A stretch of DNA of 64,000 nt from Candidatus Dojkabacteria bacterium (GCA_014729085.1 WJKM01000004.1:4345-68344), one strand, 5' to 3'; numbered from the stretch's first letter, positions 2,280 to 41,344 are shown. The notes: generated from the sequence alone by a model not told the origin. Program-made: numbers and translations.

Positions 2280-2329
2280 TTTATAATAAGTTTGTATTTA
2301 GATATATATTGATTTATATTTAAATTAAT

Positions 2330-2989
2330 ATGAAAATTTTATCTGCAGGAAAAATCAAAATAGGGTTTCTAGTCCTACTAATGTTTCTAATTGTAGGAGG
2401 TGCATATATATATTCAAACAGTAATTTTAATAATTCAGAAAGCAATGTGTTAGGAGATATTTCGAATAATCTGGAACAAGACTTAATAAATAAATTTGAA
2501 AAAGGAGAGGTTGAACAAGCTGGAGGAACTTGGGAAATAACTAGTAGTACCCCACAAAATACTTATGATCCAAATAAGTCAAAACAACAAGATATTCCTG
2601 AAAATGAGTTAATCAACAATAAGATAAAACGAATACTAAAAGACCAAAACAACTTAAACCAACCTAAAATACGAAGTTATAATACAACCAGTCTTAATAA
2701 TGGAAATTTTGAAGTATTCGTAGAATATAATGCAGGTGACCATTCGAATCATCAAGTACAAAAAAATGAAATGTACAAAGATCTAGTTAAGACGCTAAAA
2801 GAGATCTATCAACATAATAACCCTTATGTTGAATCAGTAAAATTCAATGTATATTTTGAAGATAAATTAGTATTTCAAGTTAATCTAGGTAGCAATAAAG
2901 CTAAACAAGTTAATTGGGAACTTGATGAGGTCTCACTGTATGAAAAGGTTATGCCCTCAGTCTGGAATGTAACTGTAGATAATTTTTAA
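2330..2989 (+). CDS. hypothetical membrane-anchored or secreted protein
   Basis: N-terminal hydrophobic segment (IGFLVLLMFLIVGGAYIY) followed by an N/Q/K-rich hydrophilic region. Confidence 0.5.
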   Translation: MKILSAGKIKIGFLVLLMFLIVGGAYIYSNSNFNNSESNVLGDISNNLEQDLINKFEKGEVEQAGGTWEITSSTPQNTYDPNKSKQQDIPENELINNKIKRILKDQNNLNQPKIRSYNTTSLNNGNFEVFVEYNAGDHSNHQVQKNEMYKDLVKTLKEIYQHNNPYVESVKFNVYFEDKLVFQVNLGSNKAKQVNWELDEVSLYEKVMPSVWNVTVDNF

Positions 2990-3639
2990 GAAGTAAGTGA
3001 CTTAATAATTGAGAATGCTCTCTCTATTTGCTCCTCGGTGATAATTAATATCAATTCATTAGAAGTAGATACAATATCAATTAAGTTAACATCCTCCCAT
3101 GCAAGTGCTTTAAGGATTGAATAATATACTCCTGGAATATTTAAATTATCTGGAGGCAACTTAATACTTATAGCAGAAATCGCATTCAGCTCAAATACAC
3201 TATTTTCATCTTTAAACTTTTTACTAACCAAATCAACAAGCTTTTTATTTACAATAATTGTTATTTCAAAGATTCCCTGCGAAATAATAAAGTAATTCCT
3301 TGGATCATTGTTTAAATTTAAAATGAAATCTTTTAAATTAGAAATCAATGTAGAAGAATTTTGAAAAGTAAATTCATATAAATTTGATTTTATTGTTATA
3401 TCACCTAAATTATTTAATATTTTATTAATTTGATTGGTACCTTTTTTTATTTCAGGCTTATATCTTTTAATAGCCATAATAATAGCTCCAAGCTTGATAT
3501 TTTTCATTGTTTCTTCCCTAACATAAGGCTGAATCTCCCTTGCTAATGCTGAGACGTTAATTAAATCCAAATTTAATGCTTCCTCAATGTAGGGGGTACT
3601 TTTTATATAATTTTTTACAATTTCAGATACTGTTATCAT
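2986..3639 (-). CDS. ACT-domain protein (COG2150-like predicted regulator of amino-acid metabolism)
   Basis: 217 aa with a GLINVSALAREI-type N-terminal region and C-terminal ACT-like repeats. Transcribed divergently from the first T-box leader. Confidence 0.45.
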   Translation of the reverse strand: MITVSEIVKNYIKSTPYIEEALNLDLINVSALAREIQPYVREETMKNIKLGAIIMAIKRYKPEIKKGTNQINKILNNLGDITIKSNLYEFTFQNSSTLISNLKDFILNLNNDPRNYFIISQGIFEITIIVNKKLVDLVSKKFKDENSVFELNAISAISIKLPPDNLNIPGVYYSILKALAWEDVNLIDIVSTSNELILIITEEQIERAFSIIKSLTS

Positions 3640-3705
3640 AATGAATTTAATAATTTGTTAAGATTTTAACACATTATATTAATAATGAACAAAATTTTTA
3701 AAAAT

Positions 3706-3735
3706 TTGAAATCAGTGGATATATTTAATTAAAAT
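3706..3735 (+). promoter_or_regulatory. candidate sigma70-type promoter for T-box leader 1 (TTGAAA, 18 nt, TAAAAT)
   Basis: Hexamers read directly upstream of the leader. This is an AT-rich context, so the call is weak. Confidence 0.2.
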
Positions 3736-3744
3736 TAAACCTAA

Positions 3745-4045
3745 ATTTAAAATTATGAGTTTATTTTTGCATACATTGGAATTAGTGAGTAAGAAATATA
3801 GTGCAATTCTTACAACCAATGCAATAATATGAAGGCTCGTTTATTAATTCAGCATTAAATTAATAAATTTCTGGAAGAAATCTAAAATAAAGACTAGAGA
3901 TTAGAACCAGCGTCTAAGTATACGTTAATTACAATAACCTTGTCATCTATGTGTGATAGAGAGGTTAATGAGATGCAAATAGTGATATCTGCATAAATAG
4001 AGGTGGTACCACGGACTTATAAATCCGTCCTTAGTTTAAAACTAT
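3745..4045 (+). promoter_or_regulatory. T-box riboswitch leader (tRNA-sensing antitermination element)
   Basis: The conserved T-box sequence aaatagaGGTGGTACCacgg at 3995-4014 matches the consensus AAUUAGGGUGGNACCGCGG. Upstream there is a Stem-I-like hairpin with a distal loop ATATAGTGCAA and an AATTAGTGA (UUAG) bulge resembling glyQS-type Stem I. A short hairpin overlaps the T-box at 4011-4030. Confidence 0.7.
4011..4036 (+). terminator. leader terminator hairpin of T-box 1 (ACGGAC-ttataaat-CCGTCC followed by TTAGTTT)
   Basis: The inverted repeat overlaps the 3' half of the T-box sequence, as expected for a terminator/antiterminator switch. The U-tract is weak. Confidence 0.4.
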
Positions 4046-4068
4046 TTAGATTAAGTACGGTATTAAAA

Positions 4069-5943
4069 ATGGAATTATTAACTAAAGAAAAAATTCAGCT
4101 ATTAGAGTATGAAAATACACCAGATGAACTAATACCACCAAGGATGATAGAACAAATCAATGACCAATGGCTTGTGGATTTTGGAGATGAAAATATACGC
4201 ATATGGGACGGTTGGACAGGACCAGTTGTAAGAACAAAAAGACAATGGATAAACTGGGCGGTAGATTTTGTCGGATTTAATTGTGCCGAAATTAATGACT
4301 TAAGCTCCGAGGCAGTAGAAGATTCATATAACGAGTTAACATCCTGGGTAGCTCAAGAAGCACAGAATAAATTGATCCCCAATATTAAAAATCCTGATAA
4401 TTCAAAAAAAAGACAAAAACGACTCATATTTAATGCAGGTTCGAGAGCAACAGGAGATTACATAAATGAATATCATAGAATAAAAGCAGGGAAAAGAGCA
4501 CCACATTTTGATATTTGGACAGGTGCCAGAGCTGGTTTCTATGCAGAAAAAGGAGATATGGTCGTTGGAAGGGGACTAGTTGAAACAATAGGCGAGGCTG
4601 ATCCAGAAATTCAATATGTTGAAATTCAAAATTATAATGAAAGATACTATACGTATGATGCGCTTGCTCAATGGGCAGAGGATGATCCGTATTTTAATAA
4701 TCCTTCAAATCCAATCGTTCCAATTGTAAACTTTCTGAATGAAAACCCAGAAGTTTCAATTTCTCTTTATGCAAATGGTTTCGAAGAGCAAATTGTACTT
4801 TTATACTTATTAAGCTTAACTAATAACAAAACGCTAAATATTGAAGCTAACAGTCCACTTGTTGACTCATTGAATAATAAAGCTATTCTTCATCCAGAAA
4901 TAGATGAAGTACTTGAGGTTGAAGTTGAAGACTTGAATTCTTCGGAGGAAATTCTAAACACCTTAAGAAGAGAAAAATTGAGTTCACAGATAGCTCAATA
5001 TTTTGGTGAAGAAATACTTGATATTTTCCTGGGAGTGCCTGGCTGTACAATAAGTAAAACAGAGGATCTAGAAGAATATGAAAAAAAATTTAGACGTCTG
5101 TATGATTATTTTTATAATAGATATGGAATAACGAAAATTGTTGCAAAGCCAGCCGTTTCATGTGACGGGGAAGGAATTATATTCAATATTGATCCAAGAG
5201 AAACAGAAACATTAGATAAACTTGCACGAGAATTATTTAATCATAAAACCTACATCTTTGAACCGCAAATAAATTTCAACAAATATGAAATAAACGGAGA
5301 GTATAGAGATATAGTTCCCTCGGTACATATTAAAGATGGATACACACTAGTTGGACTTGGAACTAATCAAAAAATTTATGATGAAGGTGTTTGGGGAGGT
5401 CATGATTTACTGGATAAAGTAAATGCGGAAAAACTTGGTTTAAGCGAAATGTTTGAAAAGATGGAAAAGTATATGACTATAATTGCTTCCAAATCACGAG
5501 AAAAAAACTTAGGACTTTCTTTGGCCGGTATTGATTTTTATGAAGGGACTGTTGAGAGTGATAATCCAATCATTGCTTCTAGGATTTGGAGTGGACCAGG
5601 TGACCCAAATATTCGTTTAACAGGAGCAGCATATATTTATGCTTCATTTGATAAAGTTGTTGAAGAAATTGAAAATCATTACGGCACAAAACTTATTCCC
5701 GGAGATGTATCTGTCTCTACAAGAGTAATAACCCCCAATGCTGATTACCAAACCATAGACATGTTAGTGCAAAAATTTAAAGAAGAAAATGGTAATTTGG
5801 ACGTCAAAATAACGTTTGGAACAGTTGCTGCATGTAAAGGTGGCTGGGGTATGATTTATGCAAGCGGAGAGAATACAAATACAGCGTGCAAATATGCAGA
5901 AAAATTAGTAGAATTCCTTGAATCAAATAATATTTTAATTTAA
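4069..5943 (+). CDS. uncharacterised 625-aa protein with a C-terminal ATP-grasp-like ligase domain
   Basis: The ORF track starts at 4003, but 4003-4068 lie inside the T-box and terminator, so the start is moved to ATG 4069 (MELLTKEK). IVAKPAVSCDGEGIIFNI resembles the ATP-grasp vvKP..gs.G.Gv loop, with IFEPQIN and AGIDFYEG...IIASRIWSGPG downstream. The N-terminal 370 aa match nothing I recognise. Confidence 0.6.
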   Translation: MELLTKEKIQLLEYENTPDELIPPRMIEQINDQWLVDFGDENIRIWDGWTGPVVRTKRQWINWAVDFVGFNCAEINDLSSEAVEDSYNELTSWVAQEAQNKLIPNIKNPDNSKKRQKRLIFNAGSRATGDYINEYHRIKAGKRAPHFDIWTGARAGFYAEKGDMVVGRGLVETIGEADPEIQYVEIQNYNERYYTYDALAQWAEDDPYFNNPSNPIVPIVNFLNENPEVSISLYANGFEEQIVLLYLLSLTNNKTLNIEANSPLVDSLNNKAILHPEIDEVLEVEVEDLNSSEEILNTLRREKLSSQIAQYFGEEILDIFLGVPGCTISKTEDLEEYEKKFRRLYDYFYNRYGITKIVAKPAVSCDGEGIIFNIDPRETETLDKLARELFNHKTYIFEPQINFNKYEINGEYRDIVPSVHIKDGYTLVGLGTNQKIYDEGVWGGHDLLDKVNAEKLGLSEMFEKMEKYMTIIASKSREKNLGLSLAGIDFYEGTVESDNPIIASRIWSGPGDPNIRLTGAAYIYASFDKVVEEIENHYGTKLIPGDVSVSTRVITPNADYQTIDMLVQKFKEENGNLDVKITFGTVAACKGGWGMIYASGENTNTACKYAEKLVEFLESNNILI

Positions 5944-6001
5944 AGATGTATTTATTTTTAAAATTTGTTAAATTAAATTACTATTTTTTAATAATAAAAC
6001 A

Positions 6002-6928
6002 ATGAACTCAAAGAGACTTTCATTCTTATTCATTATATTCTTTATCTTGATAAATACATCTCAACATATCTATGCGAAACAATATCCAGATGTTGATAGT
6101 TCTACTTCTCATTACAAAGAAATAGACTATATAACTGATTTAAATTACGCATCGGGTTATACAGACGGTACCTATAAACCATATAGAGAGATAACAAGAG
6201 CTGAATTCACAAAAATTTTGATTAATGCAAAATATACCTCAAATGAGATTGAGTCGTGTACAAATCAATTTAATATAACATTTCCTGATGTATCTCCTGA
6301 CTATCATTTTCGTAAATATATATGTATTGCTGAGAAGGAAGGAATTGTAAAGGGCTATACCGATGGATATTATCGTCCTGAACAAAGTATTACCTTTGGA
6401 GAAGCTTCAAAAATAGTATTAAGAACTCTCTCTCAAACTTTTTCATTACCTTCCGATGCTTTGCTAACTGAATATATTGAGCTTTTAGATTATACTAATT
6501 CTATTCCTACAACTATTTCAAGCAGAACTACAGGAAAGATGACAGATGTCAATTTAAATAGATCTGAAATGGCTTATCTTATTTATCGTGGAAAAGAACT
6601 CTACGATGATATGTTTTATTTTAACTTATATGAAAACCAAAGCCACTCTTATGTAGACCATAATAATAAACTTGTTGTAAGTATAGCCAATACAGGGCAT
6701 ATTAAGAATACAGATATAAATATTAATTCGATGGATTTAGATTGTAGTGATGATCGGATCGAGGTTACTTTAACAATAACAGAAGGTTCAAATAAACAGC
6801 AGATCCATTTAGATAAAAGTTGTAGTACCATATATTCCAAAACTGTAAGTTATAAAGACTACTATTCTTTGGAATTATTAGAATTTAATAATGCTCCTGC
6901 AGCTATTTTAAAAGTTTCAATATTTTAG
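6002..6928 (+). CDS. secreted SLH-domain (S-layer homology) protein
   Basis: Signal peptide (LSFLFIIFFILINTSQHIYA). Two SLH-like repeats (YASGYTDGTYKPYREITRAEFTKIL and FPDVSPDYHF...GIVKGYTDGYYRPEQSITFGEASKIV). Confidence 0.65.
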   Translation: MNSKRLSFLFIIFFILINTSQHIYAKQYPDVDSSTSHYKEIDYITDLNYASGYTDGTYKPYREITRAEFTKILINAKYTSNEIESCTNQFNITFPDVSPDYHFRKYICIAEKEGIVKGYTDGYYRPEQSITFGEASKIVLRTLSQTFSLPSDALLTEYIELLDYTNSIPTTISSRTTGKMTDVNLNRSEMAYLIYRGKELYDDMFYFNLYENQSHSYVDHNNKLVVSIANTGHIKNTDININSMDLDCSDDRIEVTLTITEGSNKQQIHLDKSCSTIYSKTVSYKDYYSLELLEFNNAPAAILKVSIF

Positions 6929-6959
6929 ACTAAAGAGAAATTTGATATAATAATATTTA

Positions 6960-7240
6960 TGAGAACTTAGCAGTAATCAACCAGTAGGGAAACTGGAATA
7001 GTGAAACCCAGTTTAATAATACTACTAAGCAAGACTCACATATCTAATGTTAGATATGCTTCTGAAAGAAACCCAGATACCTGGCTAGTAGAATCAGACG
7101 TATAATGCACGAAAAGCATAGAGCTTACTTGTGAGCTTATAAGATACTGATAGTAATACCAGTATGAATAAAGGTGGTACCGCTTTAAATAGCCCTTAAT
7201 AACATTTACTGAGATGAATGTTATTAAGGGTTTTTTATTT
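6960..7240 (+). promoter_or_regulatory. T-box riboswitch leader upstream of lysS (candidate Lys AAG specifier)
   Basis: T-box sequence aataaaGGTGGTACCGCttt at 7167-7183. Stem I has a distal loop AATAGTGAAAC closed by AAACTGG/CCAGTTT, closely resembling B. subtilis glyQS GAUAGUGAAAG. The candidate specifier loop is ...CUAAG-C-AAG-A-CUC at about 7029-7033. A strong terminator follows. Confidence 0.8.
7193..7240 (+). terminator. intrinsic terminator of the lysS T-box leader
   Basis: Perfect 14-bp stem CCCTTAATAACATT / AATGTTATTAAGGG with loop tactgagatg, followed by TTTTTTATTTT. Its 5' arm can pair alternatively with the T-box sequence as an antiterminator. Confidence 0.75.
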
Positions 7241-7281
7241 TGTAAATTAATTTAAAATTACTAATTATTAAACTAAAAAAA

Positions 7282-10200
7282 ATGGGTAAAACTAAATCTA
7301 CACTAGCACAAATCAGACAGTTTCGAATTGATAAAGCTAATGCTCTAAGAGAAAAAGGTATTGAACCTTATCCAACAAAAGCATCTAGAACAAATTACTC
7401 CGATGAGATTAAAAAAAATTATAGTGATTTTAAAGATAAAAAAGTGACTCTTGCCGGTCGTCTTATGTCATGGCGGGAACATGGACATATTATTTTTGGT
7501 GATATTCAAGATCAAAAGGGAGTCATTCAGCTTTATATTAAAGAAGATACTCTTAATGCAACTAATAAGCAAAAACAATCTATCGGCTTTGAAGATCTTG
7601 AATTACTAGACATAGGAGATATCATTGAAGCAACTGGAATTATAACTAAAACAAAAAGTGGAGAAATATCTATTTTAGCTCAGCAGATTAAAATTCTTAC
7701 GAAAGCCATCAGACCGCTTCCCGAAAAATGGATAGGACTTACTAATAAAGAGAAAATATTCAGAAAAAGATATTTAGATTTGATTGTAAATCCGGAAAAG
7801 AAATACAGATTTGAAAAAAGCGCGCAGATTGTTGCGGCGATAAGACAGTTTTTAAACGATAAAGGATTTCTGGAGATCAAAACACCCATAATTCAACCTT
7901 TATATGGAGGCACAAATGCACGCCCTTTTAAAACATACATGAATGCACTAAGTACAGATTTCTATTTAGCAATTTCTCATGAACTTTATTTAAAACGACT
8001 AATTACAGCAGGTTTTGACAATGTTTACAATATTGCGGGCTATTTCAGAAACGAAGGTATAGATAGATCCCATAATCCAGAATTTCAAATGATTGAAACT
8101 ATGAGTGCTTTTCATAATTATGAATACAATATGGATTTGATAGAAGAACTCTATCAATTTATAGGTAAAAACGTATTTAAGAAAAATATCTTCAAAGTTA
8201 GTGGCCAAGATGTCGACTTTAGTAAACCATGGGAAAGAATTATGATGATTGATGCTGTTAAAAAATATGCTGATATAAACTTTAATAAAATAAATGATAT
8301 TGATTCTGCTCATAATATACTCGCTAAAATTGGTTATGAAGAAGACAAACCAAATACAATTGGAGAATGTATGGTTAAAGTTTTCGAAGAGAAAGTTGAA
8401 GAACAATTAATTCAACCAACTTTTATTACCGGACATCCGGTTGAAATATCACCTCTTGCAAAACAAATGCCTTCTGATTCAAGATTTGTTGAAAGATTTG
8501 AAATCTTTATTGGCGGAATAGAAGGTGGAGATAATTGGACTGAACTTAATGACCCGGTTGAGTTGTATGAAAGACTTAAAGAACAAGTAGAGAGGGGTAG
8601 AGGAGGAGATGACGAATTTCATCCTATGGATGTTGATTTTATTGAATGTATGGAATATGGTATGCCTCCAACAACAGGACTTGGACCTGGCATTGAAAGA
8701 CTACAAATGATGTATTTGGAAACAGAATATATCGATGATGTAATATTCTTTCCAATACAAAGGCCAGCACCTCCAACTGAACTACAAAAAGAATTATATG
8801 GAGCAGAATATCTTGAAAGTAAAGAAAAAGAACTTAAAATACAATCAATAGAACAAAAAGATTTAGATAAACTACCTTCAAAAATAGATGCATTGGATCT
8901 ATTACATAAATATGTAGATGACGATTATCAGGTACTTCATGCAAAAATGGTTGCCGCCGCAATGCAAGATTATGCAGAGGATCTCGGGGCTAATCCGCAT
9001 CTATGGTATATAACCGGTTTACTGCATGATTTGGACTATGCAAAATATCCAGATAAACATCCTTATCAAGAACTTGAATGGTTCAAAGAATGGAAATATC
9101 CTGATCAATTCATACATGCAGTTGCTGCCCATGATCATCTGACAACCGGAGAAGAACCAGAAACTTTACTAGCTGCGGTGTTGCTTGCAGTTGATGAATT
9201 ATCCGGTATTCTCTATGCATATTCAAAAATGCGGGATAAGAATTTTTCCGGTATGAAAGCTAAATCTGCCATAAAAAAACTTGAGGATAAGAATTTTGCA
9301 GCAAAAATAAGCAGAGATGAGATTAAACATGGAATTAAATTATCTAAATTAGATTTAGAACCACATATCAAAAATATGATTACAACTTTTGATAATATGA
9401 AAGAATTTGGAGGTGACAAAGATTATACAGATAAAGTTGAAACAAAAGTTCATTCACTATTAACTAAAAAATTAAAACTTGCTGAGATAACTTCAGAAGT
9501 AAAAGAGAAGTTTCCTGGTATAAAATTCGGATATATAGTTCTTGAGGATGTGAAAGTTGATAAAAAAGATAAAAATTTAGACAAACTTAAAAAAGAAATA
9601 ATTTCTAAACTAGAATCTCAGTATACCGACAAATCTGAAATTAAGGAAAATGATAGGATTGAAGGATTTCGTAAAATCTATAAAAATTCCGGAGTTGATC
9701 CAAATAGTAGATTGAATAGTGCCGAAGCATTGCTAAGAAGAATTGTAAGCGGGAATGGTATATATAATGTAAACAATGTTGTAGATACATATAACATCAC
9801 TTCTGCTGAATTGGGCATTCCTATGGCTGCATATGATTTAGATAAAATAGAGGGTAGATTATCACTCCGTTTTGCAAATAAAGGAGAATCAATAATTAGA
9901 ATTGGAGAAGAAAAACCGAAGTTAATTGAGAAGGGAGAGTTAGTATATGCAGATAACAAAGGCATTACATGCATGGATTTTAATTATAGGGATGCAGATA
10001 GAACTAAAATTACAAAGGAAACAAATAAAATAATTGTATTTATAGATGGACATCAAACTATCAGTCAGAAGGAAATACTCTCCTCATTAAACCTGTTAGG
10101 ACAAAGACTTGAAACATACACAGAAGGTAAGGTAATTGGTTATGGGACTTCATGGGAGGAAGACAAAGTTCTTAACGAAGAAATCAAACAAGATATGAGT

Positions 10201-10605
10201 CGAAAGATGGTTATTGTAGTTGACAAAACATTAGAAAATTGGAAAGTTCTAAATATAGTTGGGCATGTATCTGCTTATCTAGGACATCAGATGGATGAAA
10301 AATTCAGTTCCGGCCCTGCATATAGAACAAAAGACGGAGTAAGATATGATAGAAGTTGCCAATATCCAATAATTGTTTTGCAAACTGATTCATCTAAATT
10401 GTTAGACCTCAAGGATCAGTCTGAATTATCAGATATCCTCTCTTTTTCTTTTACTAAACAACATCTAGAAATTGAGAAGGATGAAGATGTTGATGCATCC
10501 ATTTCAAATCTTGAAGAAAAAGAAATTGAGCTTTATGGTGTGGGTTTAGTAGGGGAAAAAGAAAAGTTAGACAAACTTACAAATAATTTTAAACTATGGA
10601 AGTAA
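7282..10605 (+). CDS. lysS: lysine--tRNA ligase (class II) fused to an HD phosphohydrolase domain, a B3/4 (PheT editing-like) domain and a DUF2000-like C-terminal domain
   Basis: Single uninterrupted 1107-aa ORF. Residues 1-500 are canonical class II LysRS (OB fold, FRNEG motif 2, GLGPGIERL motif 3). The HD domain spans about nt 8860-9440 (HAKMVAAAMQDYAEDLGANPHLWYITGLLHDLDY). The B3/4 domain spans about nt 9510-10060 (NNVVDTYNITSAELGIPMAAYDLDKIEGRLSLRFANKGESI...LVYADNKGITCMDFNYRDADRTKIT). The C-terminal 150 aa (VVVDKTLENWKVLNIVGHVSAYLGHQ) look DUF2000-like, a family reported to have a peptidyl-tRNA-hydrolase-like fold. Confidence 0.85.
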   Translation: MGKTKSTLAQIRQFRIDKANALREKGIEPYPTKASRTNYSDEIKKNYSDFKDKKVTLAGRLMSWREHGHIIFGDIQDQKGVIQLYIKEDTLNATNKQKQSIGFEDLELLDIGDIIEATGIITKTKSGEISILAQQIKILTKAIRPLPEKWIGLTNKEKIFRKRYLDLIVNPEKKYRFEKSAQIVAAIRQFLNDKGFLEIKTPIIQPLYGGTNARPFKTYMNALSTDFYLAISHELYLKRLITAGFDNVYNIAGYFRNEGIDRSHNPEFQMIETMSAFHNYEYNMDLIEELYQFIGKNVFKKNIFKVSGQDVDFSKPWERIMMIDAVKKYADINFNKINDIDSAHNILAKIGYEEDKPNTIGECMVKVFEEKVEEQLIQPTFITGHPVEISPLAKQMPSDSRFVERFEIFIGGIEGGDNWTELNDPVELYERLKEQVERGRGGDDEFHPMDVDFIECMEYGMPPTTGLGPGIERLQMMYLETEYIDDVIFFPIQRPAPPTELQKELYGAEYLESKEKELKIQSIEQKDLDKLPSKIDALDLLHKYVDDDYQVLHAKMVAAAMQDYAEDLGANPHLWYITGLLHDLDYAKYPDKHPYQELEWFKEWKYPDQFIHAVAAHDHLTTGEEPETLLAAVLLAVDELSGILYAYSKMRDKNFSGMKAKSAIKKLEDKNFAAKISRDEIKHGIKLSKLDLEPHIKNMITTFDNMKEFGGDKDYTDKVETKVHSLLTKKLKLAEITSEVKEKFPGIKFGYIVLEDVKVDKKDKNLDKLKKEIISKLESQYTDKSEIKENDRIEGFRKIYKNSGVDPNSRLNSAEALLRRIVSGNGIYNVNNVVDTYNITSAELGIPMAAYDLDKIEGRLSLRFANKGESIIRIGEEKPKLIEKGELVYADNKGITCMDFNYRDADRTKITKETNKIIVFIDGHQTISQKEILSSLNLLGQRLETYTEGKVIGYGTSWEEDKVLNEEIKQDMSRKMVIVVDKTLENWKVLNIVGHVSAYLGHQMDEKFSSGPAYRTKDGVRYDRSCQYPIIVLQTDSSKLLDLKDQSELSDILSFSFTKQHLEIEKDEDVDASISNLEEKEIELYGVGLVGEKEKLDKLTNNFKLWK

Positions 10606-10684
10606 TTTCTAATTTTGATTTAAAAATCAATAGGTATATAATCTAATCATATTTTGATTTTAAAATTTAAATAATTAAATTCCT

Positions 10685-11077
10685 ATGAAAACCTTAGTTC
10701 TTCCAAAGAAACTAAAAATTTCAAAAAGAAATCTTCTTTTTGAACTTATAGCGGGATTCATTATTTATTCCTGCATTATGCCCTTAATTATCTTTGATAT
10801 TTGGGCATCTATATATCAATGGATATACTTCGGTCTTAAAGGAATACCAAAAATCTCTAAAAATGATTTTATAGTAATTGACAGGCATCAACTGAAAAAA
10901 TTAAACATTTTTCAAAAAGTCAACTGTATATACTGTGGTTACGCAAATGGTTTAATCGCATGGATAAAAGCAATAATCAACCAAACGGAACTTTACAGCT
11001 GTGCTATTAAACATAAATCTCCATCCATTGGTCAGGAACATCAAAAACATTTCTATGATTTTGATGACTTTGTATAA
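10685..11077 (+). CDS. hypothetical small membrane protein with CxxC and distal Cys
   Basis: 130 aa. One or two predicted TM helices and CIYCGYANG...C. Confidence 0.45.
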   Translation: MKTLVLPKKLKISKRNLLFELIAGFIIYSCIMPLIIFDIWASIYQWIYFGLKGIPKISKNDFIVIDRHQLKKLNIFQKVNCIYCGYANGLIAWIKAIINQTELYSCAIKHKSPSIGQEHQKHFYDFDDFV

Positions 11078-11100
11078 ATTAAAATCTTAAAGCAATCAAT

Positions 11101-11643
11101 ATGCCATTACCAACTCGAGCTGAAGCTCAAAAACTCCTTGAAGAATACGTCACAGAGCCTTATCAACTATTACATGCCAAAATGAATGCTTTAGCGTTAG
11201 AAGCTTATGCAGAAAAATTTGGTGAAGATAAAGATTTATGGTATATCACAGGCTTATTACATGATCTGGATTACGACAAATTTCCGGATGAACATCCCGA
11301 TAGAGAACTTGCCTGGTTTAAAGAATGGGATTATCCAAAAGAATTAATTCATGCAGTTGACGCTCATGCATTCGGATACAAGGATTATATGACCGAACCA
11401 CAAACTAAACTTGCCAAAACATTGCTTGCAACCGATGAACTCTGTGGAATTATACACGCATATTCCTTAATGAGACCAACTGGTTATGAAGGTATGAAGG
11501 CAAGCAAAGCAAAGAAAAAATTTAAAGACAAAAGCTTTGCAGCTAAAGTTGATCGAGATGTTATAAAAAAGGGTGTAGATGCGATGGAAATTGACCTAAC
11601 TGAACATCTAGCTTTTTTGATTGGAGTCTTTCAAGATTTATAG
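11101..11643 (+). CDS. HD-domain phosphohydrolase, paralogue of the HD domain fused to LysRS
   Basis: DLWYITGLLHDLDYDKFPDEHPDRELAWFKEWDYP aligns almost residue for residue with HLWYITGLLHDLDYAKYPDKHPYQELEWFKEWKYP in the LysRS fusion. The overall YqeK/HDIG-like pattern is H...HD...H...D. Confidence 0.7.
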   Translation: MPLPTRAEAQKLLEEYVTEPYQLLHAKMNALALEAYAEKFGEDKDLWYITGLLHDLDYDKFPDEHPDRELAWFKEWDYPKELIHAVDAHAFGYKDYMTEPQTKLAKTLLATDELCGIIHAYSLMRPTGYEGMKASKAKKKFKDKSFAAKVDRDVIKKGVDAMEIDLTEHLAFLIGVFQDL

Positions 11644-11660
11644 ATTTTAAATTTGTCAAC

Positions 11661-12614
11661 TTGACTTCAAATACTATAAAAAAAATAAGTATTATTGTTC
11701 CTGTATACAATGAAGAGGAAGTGATAAATAAATTTTTTCAGAGAACTAGAAAGATCCTGGAAAAAATAAAATATAAATGGGAATTAATCTTTGTAAACGA
11801 TGGAAGCACTGATTCGACTTTACCTCTCCTGATTAAACTAGCTGAACAGAATTTAGATATTAAAATTATTAATTTTTCAAAAAACTTTGGCCATCAGCAA
11901 GCAGTTACAGCTGGATTTGACTATGCGAATGGTGATGCAGTTATTTCAATAGATGCAGATTTACAAGATCCTCCTGAACTTATCCCCAAGCTGATTGCAA
12001 AATGGGAAAAAGGAAATGAAGTGGTACACGCAAAACGTAAATCCAGGAAAGATGGCATATTAAAAATTTTAACTGCCACAATTTTTTATAAATTTTTGAA
12101 TCTTTTACTTCAAACCAAAATACCAGAAAATGTAGGTGATTATAGATTGTTGGATCGAAAGGTTATTCATGTATTTAAAAAACTGCCTGAAAAAAACCGG
12201 TATCTTAGAGGTCTTTCCTCTTGGGTTGGTTTTAAACAAACTTTTGTTAAATTTCATCGAGATAAAAGACATGCAGGGAAAACAAAATATTCTCTTGCAA
12301 AAATGCTTAAATTGGCTTCAAACGCAGTTTTTTCATTTTCAAGATTTCCTATTAGATTGGCAAGATACTTGACTGTCATATTTGGTCTATCTTCTTGTGG
12401 AATTTTTATATATGTTTTGTATTCCTGGATACAAGATAATGTTGTACCCGGATGGGCGTCTCAAATTTTAATCATGCTAATTTTTACTTCAATCAATTTG
12501 GTAATACTAAGCATAATTTCCGAATATGTAAGTAGAATTTATAATCAGGTTCAAGGCAGGCCAATTTATATAATCTCAGACACATACAATATAAATAAAT
12601 CGAAACATGAATAA
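11661..12614 (+). CDS. GT2 polyprenyl-phosphate glycosyltransferase (GtrB/ArnC/DPM1-like) with C-terminal TM helices
   Basis: IIVPVYNEEEVI, VNDGSTDST, ISIDADLQDPPELI, plus a C-terminal hydrophobic pair. Apparent TTG start at 11661, since there is no in-frame ATG before the VPVYNEE motif. Confidence 0.75.
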   Translation: MTSNTIKKISIIVPVYNEEEVINKFFQRTRKILEKIKYKWELIFVNDGSTDSTLPLLIKLAEQNLDIKIINFSKNFGHQQAVTAGFDYANGDAVISIDADLQDPPELIPKLIAKWEKGNEVVHAKRKSRKDGILKILTATIFYKFLNLLLQTKIPENVGDYRLLDRKVIHVFKKLPEKNRYLRGLSSWVGFKQTFVKFHRDKRHAGKTKYSLAKMLKLASNAVFSFSRFPIRLARYLTVIFGLSSCGIFIYVLYSWIQDNVVPGWASQILIMLIFTSINLVILSIISEYVSRIYNQVQGRPIYIISDTYNINKSKHE

Positions 12615-12822
12615 ATCTAAGTCCAATTCGGATAAAATTAATAAAAGAGAAAAAATCCGTATCCTTGCAACATGTTCTGGTTGTTTAATATTTATATGTT
12701 TTATTTGTTTATTAATAAGTTATATAATTGTTAACAACCAAAGTTTCAAAAAGGGGTATTGTGACGAATGGGAAATTCAAGGAGCTGAACCTGAATTAGA
12801 TCCATTAAATCTATGTAACTGA
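12607..12822 (+). CDS. hypothetical small single-pass membrane protein
   Basis: 71 aa with one hydrophobic helix (CSGCLIFICFICLLISYIIV). Confidence 0.3.
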   Translation: MNKSKSNSDKINKREKIRILATCSGCLIFICFICLLISYIIVNNQSFKKGYCDEWEIQGAEPELDPLNLCN

Positions 12823-12845
12823 TCTTATTTCTTAAAATTTATAAT

Positions 12846-13184
12846 ATGGAAGAAAATAAAAAGAAGAAAAAAGGACCTTTATTTTGGATTGCATCAACTA
12901 GTTTATTTTGGCTGATTTTCATATCCTTAATTACTTTAATTCTATTTGTGTTACTTGCCTCTAATAGAAATATACAAATTATGGCTCTCGAAAAAATTCA
13001 AAACCAAATGGGGCTAGAAACTGATTCTCCCTTGCTAAAATCAGAAAGGGAAGAATCTTTAGAGCAGGAATTGGAAGAAGCTAAAGAGGACCTAAAAGAA
13101 GTTGAAATTGAATTAAAAGTGGAAAAAGAAATTAGACAAGAACTCCTTAAAAATTGCAAGTCAAATTCAGGAGATTCTCTTTAA
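12846..13184 (+). CDS. hypothetical membrane-anchored coiled-coil acidic protein
   Basis: 112 aa with an N-terminal TM segment and an E/K-rich heptad-like tail. Confidence 0.4.
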   Translation: MEENKKKKKGPLFWIASTSLFWLIFISLITLILFVLLASNRNIQIMALEKIQNQMGLETDSPLLKSEREESLEQELEEAKEDLKEVEIELKVEKEIRQELLKNCKSNSGDSL

Positions 13185-13248
13185 TACATAATTGAAAAAA
13201 TTCTAAGGTTTATATTATAATTACCTTTATTTAGTATACTATAGCGTA

Positions 13249-13527
13249 ATGGAAGAAACATTTATGTTGAAAGATGTACGTGAAGTTCCATTATGGGATC
13301 GATACTGGAATGGACATTTTACGCATATAACTCATTATACTACTCTGGAAATACCTCCTAACTTACAACCCGTAATTAGGGAATCTTCTATACCATTACC
13401 ATTATATGATAGAGCCGAAGACTTAGCTAATGGTATATGGACAATAAATATCCCTTTGAGTGCTTTTAGCAATGATAAACAATTCTTTTTGGCACAGATA
13501 CACCCAAATCTTACTAGAATTAATTAA
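13249..13527 (+). CDS. hypothetical protein
   Basis: 92-aa ORF with no recognisable motif. Convergent with the transferase gene. Confidence 0.3.
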   Translation: MEETFMLKDVREVPLWDRYWNGHFTHITHYTTLEIPPNLQPVIRESSIPLPLYDRAEDLANGIWTINIPLSAFSNDKQFFLAQIHPNLTRIN

Positions 13528-14153
13528 TTATCAACTCTCCTCCATTTTCTTAAGGCTTTTTCCCAAACCTGAAGCCCTTTAAACTGCTGCTTATATTTCT
13601 GGTCTGATCCAAGATACATATAATTTTTTTCATTTTCTTTTGCCCATAAAATTGCTTTAAGCATCATACCCATGCCTAAATTATTTGTATCTATATCCAA
13701 ACGATAGAACGGATAACAATAGTGTACTATAAGATTAGTTTGAAGACATATTGCGTATCCTAGTTTTTCTTTATTCAGATTCTCTTTTGAATAACTAAAC
13801 AATAGATTATAATTATGTTCGTTTGTTAATAATTCTTTTATTTTATTAGCACTAAATGTATTATCTCCAAACTTTGTAGTATAAAAATTCTTTCCCATTT
13901 TATGGATTCTCCAGTCATAATCTTGTTTGCTTATTGGAAGCTTAATAGAGTTTAATTTCAAACCATCTACTTTCCTTAGAATTCTTCGATTTTCACTTGT
14001 AAGTTTGAATTGTTTCAAATCAATTCTCAAACTTTTTATTTGATTCATCGTACCTCTTGCAATTCTTGTCATAACAAATCCTCTCGAATACATATTTTCT
14101 ATTTTTTTGTCAGTAAAATTACTTATATTTTTGGTTTGATACTTAAAATACAC
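13524..14153 (-). CDS. aminoacyl-tRNA--protein transferase of the ATE/Bpt (arginyl/leucyl transferase) family
   Basis: N-terminal half SRGFVMTRIARG...SLRIDLKQFKLTSENRRILRK resembles ATE_N (GFRRSG ... F.ps.sqRR.lr). C-terminal NLGMGMMLKAILWAKENEKNYMYLGSDQKYKQQFKGLQ resembles ATE_C (SLGt..iL..ie.ak...l.YvYLGYwI..c.KM.YK..F.P). The ATE_N cysteine cluster is absent. Confidence 0.55.
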   Translation of the reverse strand: MYFKYQTKNISNFTDKKIENMYSRGFVMTRIARGTMNQIKSLRIDLKQFKLTSENRRILRKVDGLKLNSIKLPISKQDYDWRIHKMGKNFYTTKFGDNTFSANKIKELLTNEHNYNLLFSYSKENLNKEKLGYAICLQTNLIVHYCYPFYRLDIDTNNLGMGMMLKAILWAKENEKNYMYLGSDQKYKQQFKGLQVWEKALRKWRRVDN

Positions 14154-40069: not shown

Positions 40070-41344
40070 ATGAAAAGAAATATTATAACTGTTTCATTCA
40101 CAATCCTTTCTATTTTACTGGTTTTCTGGATTGTAACAGAAAGTACAGCAGCTAATCCGGGAAATAATTGCTGTGGAGAAGCAGATTATGGAAGTTGTAC
40201 AACAGATGGCGATTGGATAGATGGCTATATTGCTTGTTCGAACGGACAATGCAGTAAATGTGCTGGAGCTTCATGGCATTCATGTAATTATGATGGAAAC
40301 TGTGGACCAGGAGAAGATCATGTAGTATGTCCAAATGACTGTGATCAGTACGGAAGAAGTACTGGCTCAAGTAGTACCGATAATTATACTAATTCCGGAA
40401 GCAATCAATGTTCGTGCGCTGATTGGAATTATAATGGTTGTGGTCGAGGTTGTACATTCCCTGGAGGTAAAGACTGTTCGGGAACTGCAAAAGCTAATCC
40501 TGGACGAGTAGTAGTACAGTGGTGTTCAAGTGTAAATAACGCTACATGTAGAGTCGATCCTCCATCAGGTTGTAACTGTATTGTAGGGAACAACTCGGGC
40601 ATGAATATAGGAGACTGCGGAACCTGTGGAAATAAAGCCTGGAGATGGAATCCGGAACAAACACCGCCCCCTTCACAGCCTACTCCTGTGCCTACTCAGC
40701 CAACTTTACCGCCGCCACCATTACCTGGCTGTCCATGTGTAAGAACTTATACAAATCCAAGTGAATCGCCATATTATAACCCTCAGACTAAACAAACTTT
40801 TCCTGATGTTCCTATATCACATCAGTATTTTGAATATATTCAATGCCTTGAATGTGATAACGTAGTTCATGGATACAGCAATTGGACTTTCAAACCGGAG
40901 CAACCAATTACTAGAGCTGAAATGGCTAAAATAATCGAAAACGGCTTTCGAATACCTGAAAATCTTGGATGCACACCTTTTAGAGATGTTCATTATGGTA
41001 CAGTTTTTTATCATTACATTACGACTCTTAAATGCTGGGGAATCTCAAACGGATATTCTGATGGTACATATAGACCTCAATATTATATTACAAGAGCTGA
41101 AGCTGTTAAACTTATTGTTCTGGCAGCAAGACGTGCTAAAGCTGATCCCAATTTTTTAGCAAACCGAGCAAATCATCAAGTTTTTTATGATGTACCAACA
41201 AATCATGTACATTTCCAATACATTAATGCTCTTTACTCAAATAATGTAAGAGATCCTAACTATAGTCAGTACTTTAGGCCAGAAAACTATATAACAAGAG
41301 CCGAAATGTCTCTATATGTTGATATCGCAAGGAGATATATGTAA
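40070..41344 (+). CDS. secreted Cys-rich protein with Pro-rich linker and three C-terminal SLH domains
   Basis: Signal peptide. 30 Cys in the first 200 aa (CCGEADYGSC...CSKCAGASWHSC...), then TPPPSQPTPVPTQPTLPPPPLPGCPC, then three SLH repeats (FPDV.../FRDV.../FYDV...ITRAE). Local GC is clearly above the window average. Confidence 0.7.
   Translation: MKRNIITVSFTILSILLVFWIVTESTAANPGNNCCGEADYGSCTTDGDWIDGYIACSNGQCSKCAGASWHSCNYDGNCGPGEDHVVCPNDCDQYGRSTGSSSTDNYTNSGSNQCSCADWNYNGCGRGCTFPGGKDCSGTAKANPGRVVVQWCSSVNNATCRVDPPSGCNCIVGNNSGMNIGDCGTCGNKAWRWNPEQTPPPSQPTPVPTQPTLPPPPLPGCPCVRTYTNPSESPYYNPQTKQTFPDVPISHQYFEYIQCLECDNVVHGYSNWTFKPEQPITRAEMAKIIENGFRIPENLGCTPFRDVHYGTVFYHYITTLKCWGISNGYSDGTYRPQYYITRAEAVKLIVLAARRAKADPNFLANRANHQVFYDVPTNHVHFQYINALYSNNVRDPNYSQYFRPENYITRAEMSLYVDIARRYM

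Follow-up and report, generated by a model that had tools for sequence, protein, structure and literature searches.

The 64-kb stretch of DNA analysed here (the window) encodes, in a genuine single gene, a four-module lysyl-tRNA synthetase (LysRS) in which a class II core is followed by HD, B3/4 and DUF2000 domains. Sequence comparison places the protein in a modular family, known mostly from candidate-phyla (CPR) metagenomes, in which these three domains have been shuffled on LysRS C-termini. The domains are identified by profile and structure searches; their catalytic roles and substrates we infer, and the best reading, which we hold to be fairly probable, is that of a synthetase for quality control and recycling of tRNA-Lys.

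One gene for a four-module LysRS

The gene occupies 7282..10605 (+) as one frame of 1107 aa in the ORF listing, with an ATG start and no internal stops, in agreement with the uninterrupted ORF claimed in a sequence-only reading of the window; the peptides quoted there (NNVVDTYN, PMAAYDLDKI and ADNKGITCMDFNYRDADRTKIT) were all found in the translation. The four domain assignments of that reading also held, LysRS scoring above NCBIfam cut-offs and HD, B3_4 and DUF2000 above those of Pfam.

The LysRS core, aa 1-496 (7282..8769, +), consists of an OB anticodon-binding domain (Pfam tRNA_anti-codon, aa 55-139, E 6.5e-13) and a catalytic domain (tRNA-synt_2, aa 156-493, E 4.9e-74). It scored above the cut-offs of the NCBIfam families TIGR00499 (lysS_bact; 523.9 bits vs 427.6) and NF001756 (567.8 vs 468), and aligned end to end with Geobacillus stearothermophilus LysRS 3a74 (aa 14-494, E 1e-118), the motif 2 and motif 3 regions included. 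With both an lysS equivalog match and an end-to-end alignment, these N-terminal 496 aa are predicted to act as an ordinary class II LysRS, charging tRNA-Lys. Mycobacterial LysX, an MprF-LysRS fusion, also exceeds 1000 aa, and the window core aligns with the LysRS part of NF002821 (profile positions 616-1101); however, its score of 439.6 is far under the LysX cut-off of 742, and LysRS is joined in LysX to an N-terminal membrane lysyl-phosphatidylglycerol synthase, whereas its partners in the window are C-terminal, soluble and predicted to be hydrolases.

Three appended domains

The HD domain spans aa 531-706 (8872..9399, +), with the Pfam match (PF01966) at aa 553-641 scoring 31.6 bits vs a cut-off of 22. 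It combines an HD fold with the H...HD...D pattern of metal ligands: all 20 sequences compared keep H553, H582-D583 and D638, and H617 is invariant as well. The sequence-only reading had called this domain YqeK-like, a label that proved too specific. The NCBIfam scan gave no YqeK family match, and the non-specific fold search showed a likeness to YqeK (an Ap4A hydrolase) no better than that to c-di-NMP phosphodiesterases, alarmone hydrolases or the HD domain of GlyRS beta, the last of which, non-catalytic and tRNA-binding, was among the best matches. No subfamily stands out among YqeK, the cyclic dinucleotide phosphodiesterases PgpH/HD-GYP and GlyRS beta HD, although the H-D doublet is kept in the window domain and not in GlyRS beta. 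From its conserved ligands, the fused HD is probably an active phosphohydrolase, whose substrate may be a nucleotide by-product of LysRS (Ap4A, for instance) or a tRNA with a damaged 3' end. A free-standing HD paralogue of 180 aa (Pfam HD; 11101..11643, +) lies two genes 3' of lysS; its identity to the fused HD is 53% over 180 aa, and to the HD fused in a related locus (L029) 60%.

The B3/4 domain, aa 737-960 (9490..10161, +), was placed by Pfam B3_4 (PF03483; aa 801-925, 92.0 bits vs a cut-off of 29.3, profile positions 7-128 of 174), by PDB sequence matches and by residue mapping. Its best solved relatives are structures of CtdA (9f7e, E 2.7e-12; 9mkl, E 3.1e-12), and the match to PheRS beta is weaker (E 4.8e-7), so CtdA-like describes this domain better than PheT-type. 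CtdA is a free-standing canavanyl-tRNA(Arg) deacylase of the B3/4 fold (PDB 9f7e, 9mkl; PMC10018355, PMC12449066), and its N105 is essential (PMC12449066). In the window domain, whose pocket residues are N838, A849, Y851, D852, C897, D904 and F920, the essential Asn (N105 to N838) and the specificity Cys (C166 to C897) are retained, and a small residue, A849, conservatively replaces G116. The pocket differs, however, at E118 (Y851), Q173 (D904) and I189 (F920); because of these differences canavanine specificity is not expected, and with the set N105/G116/E118/C166/Q173/I189 not fully kept the domain is a relative of CtdA rather than CtdA proper. It is also covalently joined to a synthetase, with LysRS rather than ArgRS as its partner. 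Fusions are not mentioned in the CtdA papers that we consulted.

The B3/B4 domain of PheRS beta, which hydrolyses Tyr- and m-Tyr-tRNA-Phe, belongs to the same Pfam family and represents the same concept, a class II synthetase that carries its own module for post-transfer editing in cis. It is embedded in the beta subunit, whereas the window domain is a C-terminal appendage; moreover, the PheRS editing positions H265 and G318 correspond, via the CtdA alignment, to A849 and D904, leaving the shared Asn (E. coli N254) as the sole one retained.

Among B3/4 domains fused to a synthetase, the Asn essential in CtdA is invariant in all 39, and the specificity Cys is kept in 25 of the 39, the window among them. 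At the positions of E118 and Q173, every LysRS-fused domain (38/38) carries Tyr/Phe and Asp, and the lone TyrRS-fused domain His and Gln. The Asp is not a lysine-specific marker, since it also occupies the Q173 position in 112 of 120 free-standing B3/4 proteins.

The DUF2000 domain closes the protein (aa 975-1107; 10204..10602, +), at 86.3 bits vs a Pfam cut-off of 25 (PF09391). The closest known systems are Pth2, the archaeal/eukaryotic peptidyl-tRNA hydrolase (1wn2), and the DUF2000 protein Atu0240 (2gax). The domain has the fold of Atu0240, and its fold matches Pth2, which bears out the peptidyl-tRNA-hydrolase-like fold proposed earlier; sequence-level alignment of DUF2000 to Pth2 gave no match. 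Five polar residues (W987, N991, H995, D1018 and D1067) are invariant in the family. Of the top 150 DUF2000 matches in a profile search against 1.84 billion representatives, 38 are proteins of at least 240 aa, and 35 of these contain a LysRS module; lysS was the best NCBIfam family for all nine LysRS-containing DUF2000 proteins tested (9/9). We found no description of this strong, nearly exclusive fusion in the literature. One fragment reads LysRS-DUF2000-AlaX; AlaX is a known editing domain.

The three appended modules would be autonomous hydrolase-type domains. They might instead be mainly non-catalytic tRNA-handling devices, raising affinity for tRNA-Lys or positioning its acceptor end, as do Trbp111/EMAPII-type domains and the degenerate HD of GlyRS beta; a relative (P0057) carries tRNA_bind (PF01588) as well as B3/4, and reduced genomes often compensate through tRNA-binding extensions. 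We think this unlikely, given that the HD ligands are intact, unlike those of GlyRS beta, and that the CtdA catalytic Asn and the W, N, H, D, D set of DUF2000 are invariant. Single-domain free-standing versions of all three also exist, as expected for autonomous enzymes.

A modular family of LysRS fusions

The survey of LysRS architectures proposed in the sequence-only reading uncovered related fusions, the architectures seen being LysRS-HD, -B34, -DUF2000, -B34-HD, -HD-B34, -B34-DUF2000, -HD-DUF2000 and -DUF2000-HD. On this comparison the window fusion does not stand alone. Its four-domain form has no second example so far, and the window protein is the largest known, maximal member of the family. 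Ten proteins with LysRS cores 62-67% identical to that of the window show four different architectures, and in one locus (L028) an HD of the same subfamily is encoded by a gene of its own, 18 nt after LysRS-B34. In this lineage LysRS has time and again acquired, shed and rearranged the three modules. The nearest relatives of the gene come from metagenome-assembled CPR genomes. No description of the fusion family was found in the literature.

An architecture that is a singleton might be an artefact in which a chimeric join, or an error of sequencing or assembly, has run separate neighbouring genes together. We consider this very improbable, as all three junction types are seen independently in other proteins: LysRS-HD in 60, HD-B34 in P0008, and B34-DUF2000 in P0003, P0007, P0024, P0212 and P0265. 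In addition, GC (31-35%) and GC3 (0.20-0.23) are even over the four domains and the same as in neighbouring genes, and the interdomain linkers are K/E-rich, in frame and stop-free. An identical protein is absent from a collection of 15 billion proteins, and searches of genome and metagenome contigs returned no near-identical locus. The host genome is low in GC (30%).

The same B3/4 subtype is joined to class II LysRS and, in 12 proteins, to class I LysRS (PF01921). The two classes are structurally unrelated and have in common lysine, ATP and tRNA-Lys as substrates. The free-standing B3/4 and DUF2000 genes that we examined do not adjoin lysS.

Proposed function

The CtdA-type B3/4 domain would most likely hydrolyse wrongly acylated tRNA-Lys in cis, a post-transfer editing step that would remove a lysine analogue or another non-cognate amino acid. 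DUF2000, with its PTH2 fold, most likely targets the 3'-terminal ester bond of tRNA-Lys as well; its substrates might be N-blocked or peptidyl-Lys-tRNA-Lys, or else a second class of mis-acylated species, and its action would hand free tRNA-Lys back to the synthetase. Lys-tRNA-Lys was reportedly found by Heurgue-Hamard in 1996 (cited in PMC9973355) to be limiting in E. coli without Pth.

The sequence-only reading had offered both cis-editing and Ap4A turnover as functions, and we treat both as inferences; comparative evidence has added support to the former and none to the latter. LysRS makes Ap4A, and YqeK is an HD-type Ap4A hydrolase. The fused HD and its paralogue might thus destroy the Ap4A and other dinucleoside polyphosphates that LysRS makes, with editing secondary or absent. 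In favour of nucleotide turnover, LysRS-HD accounts for 60 of the 108 full-length fusions collected, far more than any other type, and its metal ligands are intact; the idea nevertheless seems to us doubtful, as the domain matches no YqeK family and is structurally no nearer YqeK than other HD classes, and as turnover leaves B3/4 and DUF2000 unexplained, likewise the B3/4 on class I LysRS.

Quality control and recycling of tRNA-Lys might extend beyond this one protein. Tentatively, LysRS in these lineages could be the hub of a dedicated system of this kind. The LysRS-type B3/4 subfamily would then carry out a post-transfer editing of tRNA-Lys that has so far escaped notice, and the two LysRS classes, I and II, would have recruited it independently. 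DUF2000 would serve as an ester hydrolase directed at tRNA-Lys, removing N-blocked, peptidyl or aberrant acyl groups and freeing tRNA-Lys beside the enzyme that recharges it. If true, DUF2000 would gain its first function, and the view that LysRS relies on pre-transfer editing only would be overturned; the fusions suggest a proofreading or recycling of tRNA-Lys that textbooks deny to LysRS.

A T-box-like leader upstream of lysS

A T-box-like leader occupies 6947..7200 (+), with Stem I (6960-7038), further stems, a T-box core and an antiterminator, behind a promoter-like site at 6924..6951 (+; TTTAGA, a 16-nt spacer and a TG-extended TATAAT) that rests on a consensus match at 10 of 12 positions, with TG preceding the -10 box. 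The strings AATAGTGAAAC and CTAAGCAAGACTC lie at 6998-7008 and 7025-7037, Stem I folds as predicted, and the fold of 6945-7245 has a z of -4.3. The candidate lysine specifier, AAG at 7031..7033 (+), was read directly from the sequence at the position given by covariance-model alignment; it lies 5' of lysS, as in the earlier assignment, and is followed by a purine (A7034) and the closing helix CUCA (7035-7038). The core AAAGGUGGUACCGC (7170..7183, +) presents UGGU at 7175-7178, which would pair with the tRNA 3' end ACCA; within it the motif GGTGGTACCGC is exact at 7173-7183, with 0.08 such matches expected by chance in the window, and a second match, with one mismatch, lies at 4002-4012. An intrinsic terminator at 7191..7237 (+) combines an 18-bp hairpin (7191-7232; dG -23.2 kcal/mol, z -8.0) with a T-run. 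In the model alignment the CCCUU of its 5' arm also forms part of the antiterminator's 3' strand; the antiterminator is a weak structure (4 + 3 bp) that differs from the minimum-free-energy fold of 7166-7200.

The leader had been described as a clear T-box, which it is by combined criteria only: core with UGGN bulge, competing terminator and candidate AAG specifier are all present, but the Rfam T-box model RF00230 scored 31.6 bits (6947-7200, E 2.9e-5, in a 601-nt search) vs a gathering score of 93, which is why the default whole-window Rfam scan was silent here. From its anatomy, we take it as a transcription-attenuating T-box. It shares with the T-boxes of other aminoacyl-tRNA synthetase (aaRS) genes (RF00230), the rare Lys-specific ones included, its place 5' of the cognate aaRS gene, the core AAAGGUGGUACCGC and a Stem I in which distal-loop motifs are present. 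As in those leaders, a purine comes after the candidate specifier, and antiterminator and terminator exclude each other. Its specifier is AAG, whereas in two-codon families the 3'-A codon is preferred in >85% of cases (PMC7778990). It also differs in its host lineage, which looks CPR, and in that T-boxes were found at none of the six related lysS loci scanned (L001, L003, L010, L028, L029, L030), so that covariation support is lacking. Stem I would bind uncharged tRNA-Lys by base pairing at its AAG specifier, and the ACCA end of the tRNA would pair with UGGU in the T-box bulge; this would hold the weak antiterminator and keep the very stable terminator from forming. When charged tRNA-Lys is scarce, lysS would be transcribed, and perhaps also the downstream HD paralogue: 10400-13600 has no terminator-like site, and there is none between lysS and that paralogue. 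The window holds no tRNA-Lys gene.

Such control raises the possibility of an auxiliary, starvation-induced LysRS paralogue, like the T-box-controlled lysK of Bacillus cereus, with the extra domains serving a stress function. Lys-specific T-boxes are among the rarest (PMC7778990), control here is lineage-specific, and ~5 kb separate the conserved GT2 gene from lysS in the window, a stretch that contains both T-box-like leaders, whereas the two genes are adjacent in L001 and L003. We nonetheless judge this improbable. The core scores above the lysS equivalog cut-off, and the GT2 / lysS / ATE_C-like neighbourhood of the closest relatives is kept, which is what an orthologous housekeeping gene should show. 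Single aaRS copies are the rule in CPR genomes, and a second lysS was not seen within the window.

Results and Discussion

The forward strand carries a single ORF at 7282..10605 that encodes a lysS product of 1107 aa, with no internal stops in the ORF listing. Pfam placed five domains along it, each above its curated cut-off: tRNA_anti-codon (aa 55-139), tRNA-synt_2 (aa 156-493; E 4.9e-74), HD (aa 553-641; 31.6 bits against a cut-off of 22), B3_4 (aa 801-925; 92 bits against 29.3), and DUF2000 (aa 975-1107; 86.3 bits against 25). The N-terminal 496 aa are a lysine-tRNA ligase at equivalog level (NCBIfam TIGR00499, 523.9 bits against 427.6), and this LysRS core gives an end-to-end alignment with 3a74, the G. 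stearothermophilus enzyme (E 1e-118). The four modules and the neighboring genes do not differ in overall GC (31-35%) or third-position GC (0.20-0.23), and the modules are joined in frame by K/E-rich spacers. A sequence-only reading had described one ORF with four domains, and the uninterrupted frame and the HD, B3_4 and DUF2000 scores bear this out; its interpretation stood in part, losing the PheT type of the B3/4 domain and the YqeK-specific HD. The protein collection contained no exact copy of the protein, and scans of genome and metagenome contigs gave no close copy: the best was L003, the closest genomic locus, from a MAG labelled uncultured Candidatus Saccharibacteria, which encodes a LysRS-B34 protein (B34 denoting B3/4) of 67% identity, and the others reached at most 40% except for short fragments.

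A search with the C-terminal 611 aa recovered 111 proteins, which we re-annotated using the window's own segments. The commonest architecture was LysRS-HD, found in one protein named Candidatus Dojkabacteria among others; further architectures were LysRS-B34, LysRS-B34-HD and LysRS-HD-B34, and DUF2000 occurred in LysRS-B34-DUF2000, LysRS-HD-DUF2000 and LysRS-DUF2000-HD. We also found LysRS-tRNA_bind-B34 (P0057), one B34-TyrRS with the B3/4 domain N-terminal of TyrRS (P0111), and 12 proteins named Anaerolineae in which B3/4 follows a class I LysRS (PF01921). P0156, from the DUF2000 profile search described below, is a fragment running from LysRS-DUF2000 into an AlaX(M)-type editing domain, and P0212 and P0265, which may be fragments, carry B3/4-DUF2000 with no synthetase; these three, P0057 and P0111 come from related metagenomes. 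Ten proteins with LysRS cores at 62-67% identity to that of the window account for four architectures, the next relatives being at 45%, and locus L028 has a LysRS-B34 gene and, 18 nt after it, an independent HD gene belonging to the same subfamily. All three junction types of the window protein occur in other proteins; the complete four-domain form had no second case in the homologue set, the protein collection, or the genome and metagenome contigs. Judged by these architectures, the window protein belongs to a modular family.

The B3/4 domain had been taken for the editing domain type of PheRS beta. Its closest solved relatives are structures of CtdA, a free-standing canavanyl-tRNA-Arg deacylase with a B3/4 fold (9f7e, E 2.7e-12; 9mkl, E 3.1e-12), which outscore PheRS beta (3pco, E 4.8e-7), and we discarded the PheT type in favor of a CtdA type. 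CtdA acts on canavanyl-tRNA-Arg through a pocket of N105, G116, E118, C166, Q173 and I189, where N105 is indispensable and specificity is tuned by C166 (PMC12449066); the corresponding window residues are, in order, N838, A849, Y851, C897, D904 and F920. The catalytic Asn (N105/N838) and the Cys (C166/C897) are thus common to both, but the remaining pocket positions differ, and because they differ we class the domain, on its pocket residues, as CtdA-like and not as a canavanine deacylase.

B3/4 domains fused to class I and class II LysRS have one common signature (N, A/G, Y/F, D), and all 38 carry Asp where CtdA has Q173; the TyrRS-fused domain departs from this, with H and Q. We dropped Asp904 as a lysine-specific marker, since Asp also occupies this position in most free-standing B3/4 relatives. 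Since class I and class II LysRS have unrelated structures and only their substrates in common, the recurrent B3/4 fusion suggests tRNA-Lys or a lysine analogue as what this module acts on. Given the CtdA ancestry and the invariant catalytic Asn, the most economical reading is that the domain would deacylate mis-acylated tRNA-Lys post-transfer. Free-standing LysRS-type B3/4 genes (L013 and L014) showed no lysS link in their neighborhoods. The capture of a CtdA-like domain by both LysRS classes is a strong comparative hint of post-transfer tRNA-Lys proofreading in some organisms, and the shuffling of this module takes the newly characterized CtdA family beyond canavanine. In the textbook account, LysRS lacks an editing domain of its own, and its rejection of homocysteine, homoserine and ornithine occurs inside the catalytic site. 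One study lists these three among the compounds that LysRS rejects (PMC5370406).

The DUF2000 domain of the window protein has the Pth2 fold. A word-index search with it gave no matches, and a full profile search of 1.84 billion representatives, used in its place, gave 701 hits; among the top 150 of these, the LysRS module was present in 35 of the 38 proteins of at least 240 aa, and lysS was the best NCBIfam family for all nine LysRS-containing DUF2000 proteins tested. A profile search of the PDB did not reach Pth2, and free-standing DUF2000 genes (L025-L027) had no lysS link in their neighborhoods. The Pth2 fold together with this near-exclusive LysRS partnership suggests a second hydrolase working at the 3' end of tRNA-Lys. 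Heurgue-Hamard reportedly found in 1996 (cited in PMC9973355) that E. coli deficient in Pth is limited by Lys-tRNA-Lys, which makes recycling of blocked tRNA-Lys beside the synthetase plausible, and we infer that DUF2000 could perform such recycling next to LysRS. The fusion would offer DUF2000 a concrete, testable substrate class, and ties in with tRNA-Lys as the limiting tRNA upon Pth failure.

A structure model of the fused HD domain (pLDDT 93.8) was compared with known structures, Foldseek also being run, and scored 12.2 against HD-GYP, 12.0 against the GlyRS-beta HD domain, 11.2 against PgpH and 10.3-11.0 against YqeK-type proteins; as modeled, it resembles the HD superfamily broadly. The proposed YqeK-specific assignment was discarded, since the YqeK family model was unmatched in the NCBIfam search and YqeK-type similarity lies below that to HD-GYP. 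H553, H582-D583, H617 and D638 are invariant in 20 HD homologues. Unlike the HD domain of GlyRS-beta, which has lost the H-D doublet (PMC8464048), the window HD, probably a functional phosphohydrolase, keeps it. An earlier suggestion, Ap4A turnover by this domain, is possible, with nothing specific in its favor.

Two genes downstream of lysS is a free-standing HD paralogue (11101-11643, +) that shares 53% identity with the fused HD, and no terminator-like site was found between lysS and this gene. The paralogue is closer, at 60% identity, to the HD domain carried by the syntenic LysRS-HD gene of L029 (compared over L029 4133-4663), a relationship suggesting that HD modules have been split off, fused or replaced in this lineage. 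Between lysS and the paralogue, a 130-aa ORF (10685-11077, +) has a hydrophobic-looking, cysteine-containing translation, which matched no family at E values as permissive as 10.

Our literature searches found no paper on LysRS fused to B3/4, HD or DUF2000, no tRNA-biology function for DUF2000, and nothing relevant on LysRS with an editing domain in CPR or on the T-box in CPR. Aminoacyl-tRNA synthetases with cis-editing domains, trans-editing factors, Pth2, HD hydrolases and T-box control are already known; the main interest of the fusion is that it predicts tRNA-Lys editing or recycling and gives DUF2000 a testable role.

A default Rfam scan of the whole window reports nothing but a tRNA. A permissive scan of 6800-7400 matched the T-box model full length at 6947-7200, scoring 31.6 bits where the gathering score is 93 (E 2.9e-5). 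The leader has a promoter-like site with a TG-extended -10 (6924-6951), a Stem I with a distal AGUGAAAC-type loop (6960-7038), a candidate AAG specifier (7031-7033) followed by A, immediately 5' of the closing helix and at the model's specifier position, a T-box core AAAGGUGGUACCGC (7170-7183), and a terminator of 18 bp with a T-run (7191-7237; dG -23.2 kcal/mol, z -8). The core includes an exact match to the 11-mer GGTGGTACCGC, for which the chance expectation in the window is 0.08, and CCCUU in the 5' arm of the terminator comprises bases that the Rfam model pairs into the antiterminator, which is weak here. Promoter-like site, Stem I, AAG, core and terminator are independent features that agree with a T-box. 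The earlier proposal of a T-box with an AAG specifier is thus upheld by core, terminator and specifier position but not by the Rfam score, and we accept the leader, with the caveat of that sub-threshold score, as a putative T-box-type attenuator specific for tRNA-Lys. A T-box was found in none of six related lysS loci (L001, L003, L010, L028, L029 and L030), so covariation of the leader cannot be assessed, and the motif GGTGGTACC was found in none of 30 fetched loci. Lys-specific T-boxes are among the rarest, and two-codon families favor the 3'-A codon in >85% of T-boxes (TBDB; PMC7778990), which makes AAG a minority choice.

A second T-box-like leader (3881-4035, +; local scan with RF00230, 39.0 bits, E 3.6e-7) lies upstream of an ORF at 4069-5943. 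Its core is GAGGUGGUACCACGG, and its Stem I is strongly shortened, 5 nt standing in for 68 of the model positions. We found no U-tract terminator in it but a possible helix, CCGUCCUUAG / UUAAGUACGG, adjoining the ATG at 4069, so that this leader may act on translation. The 624-aa product of the ORF has no relative in Pfam (E up to 10), NCBIfam or the PDB. If the organism belongs to the CPR, two T-box-like leaders would widen the known range of this riboswitch.

In this window of 30% GC, the glycosyltransferase gene (GT2) at 1311-2276 has an orthologue immediately upstream of lysS in both L001 and L003, and we compared window 2280-7280 with L001 2996-4001 and L003 1955-3001. The window's GT2-lysS gap of ~5 kb contains, besides both T-box-like leaders and the 624-aa ORF, two small ORFs and the gene of an SLH-domain protein; because both leaders fall inside this stretch, T-box control looks like a lineage-specific acquisition. 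The SLH-domain protein (6002-6928, +) is one of two, the other being at 40070-41344 (+), and such proteins seem unusual where the closest lysS relatives are labelled candidate-phyla bacteria.

The order GT2 / lysS / ATE_C-like is common to the window and L029 and, like the GT2 neighborhood of L001 and L003, links the window to these relatives by synteny. The window's ATE_C-like ORF (13527-14153, -; ATE_C E 2.9e-5) matches NCBIfam arginyltransferase models at E ~1e-10, all below cut-offs, and is 52% identical to its syntenic counterpart (L029 5925-6572); with its weak similarity to arginyl-/leucyl-tRNA-protein transferases, it is another would-be aminoacyl-tRNA user near the synthetase. Downstream of the LysRS-B34 / HD pair in L028, a PheRS-like gene is immediately preceded by a partial tmRNA-like match (6020-6089, -), whose 32.9 bits fall short of the gathering score of 47.
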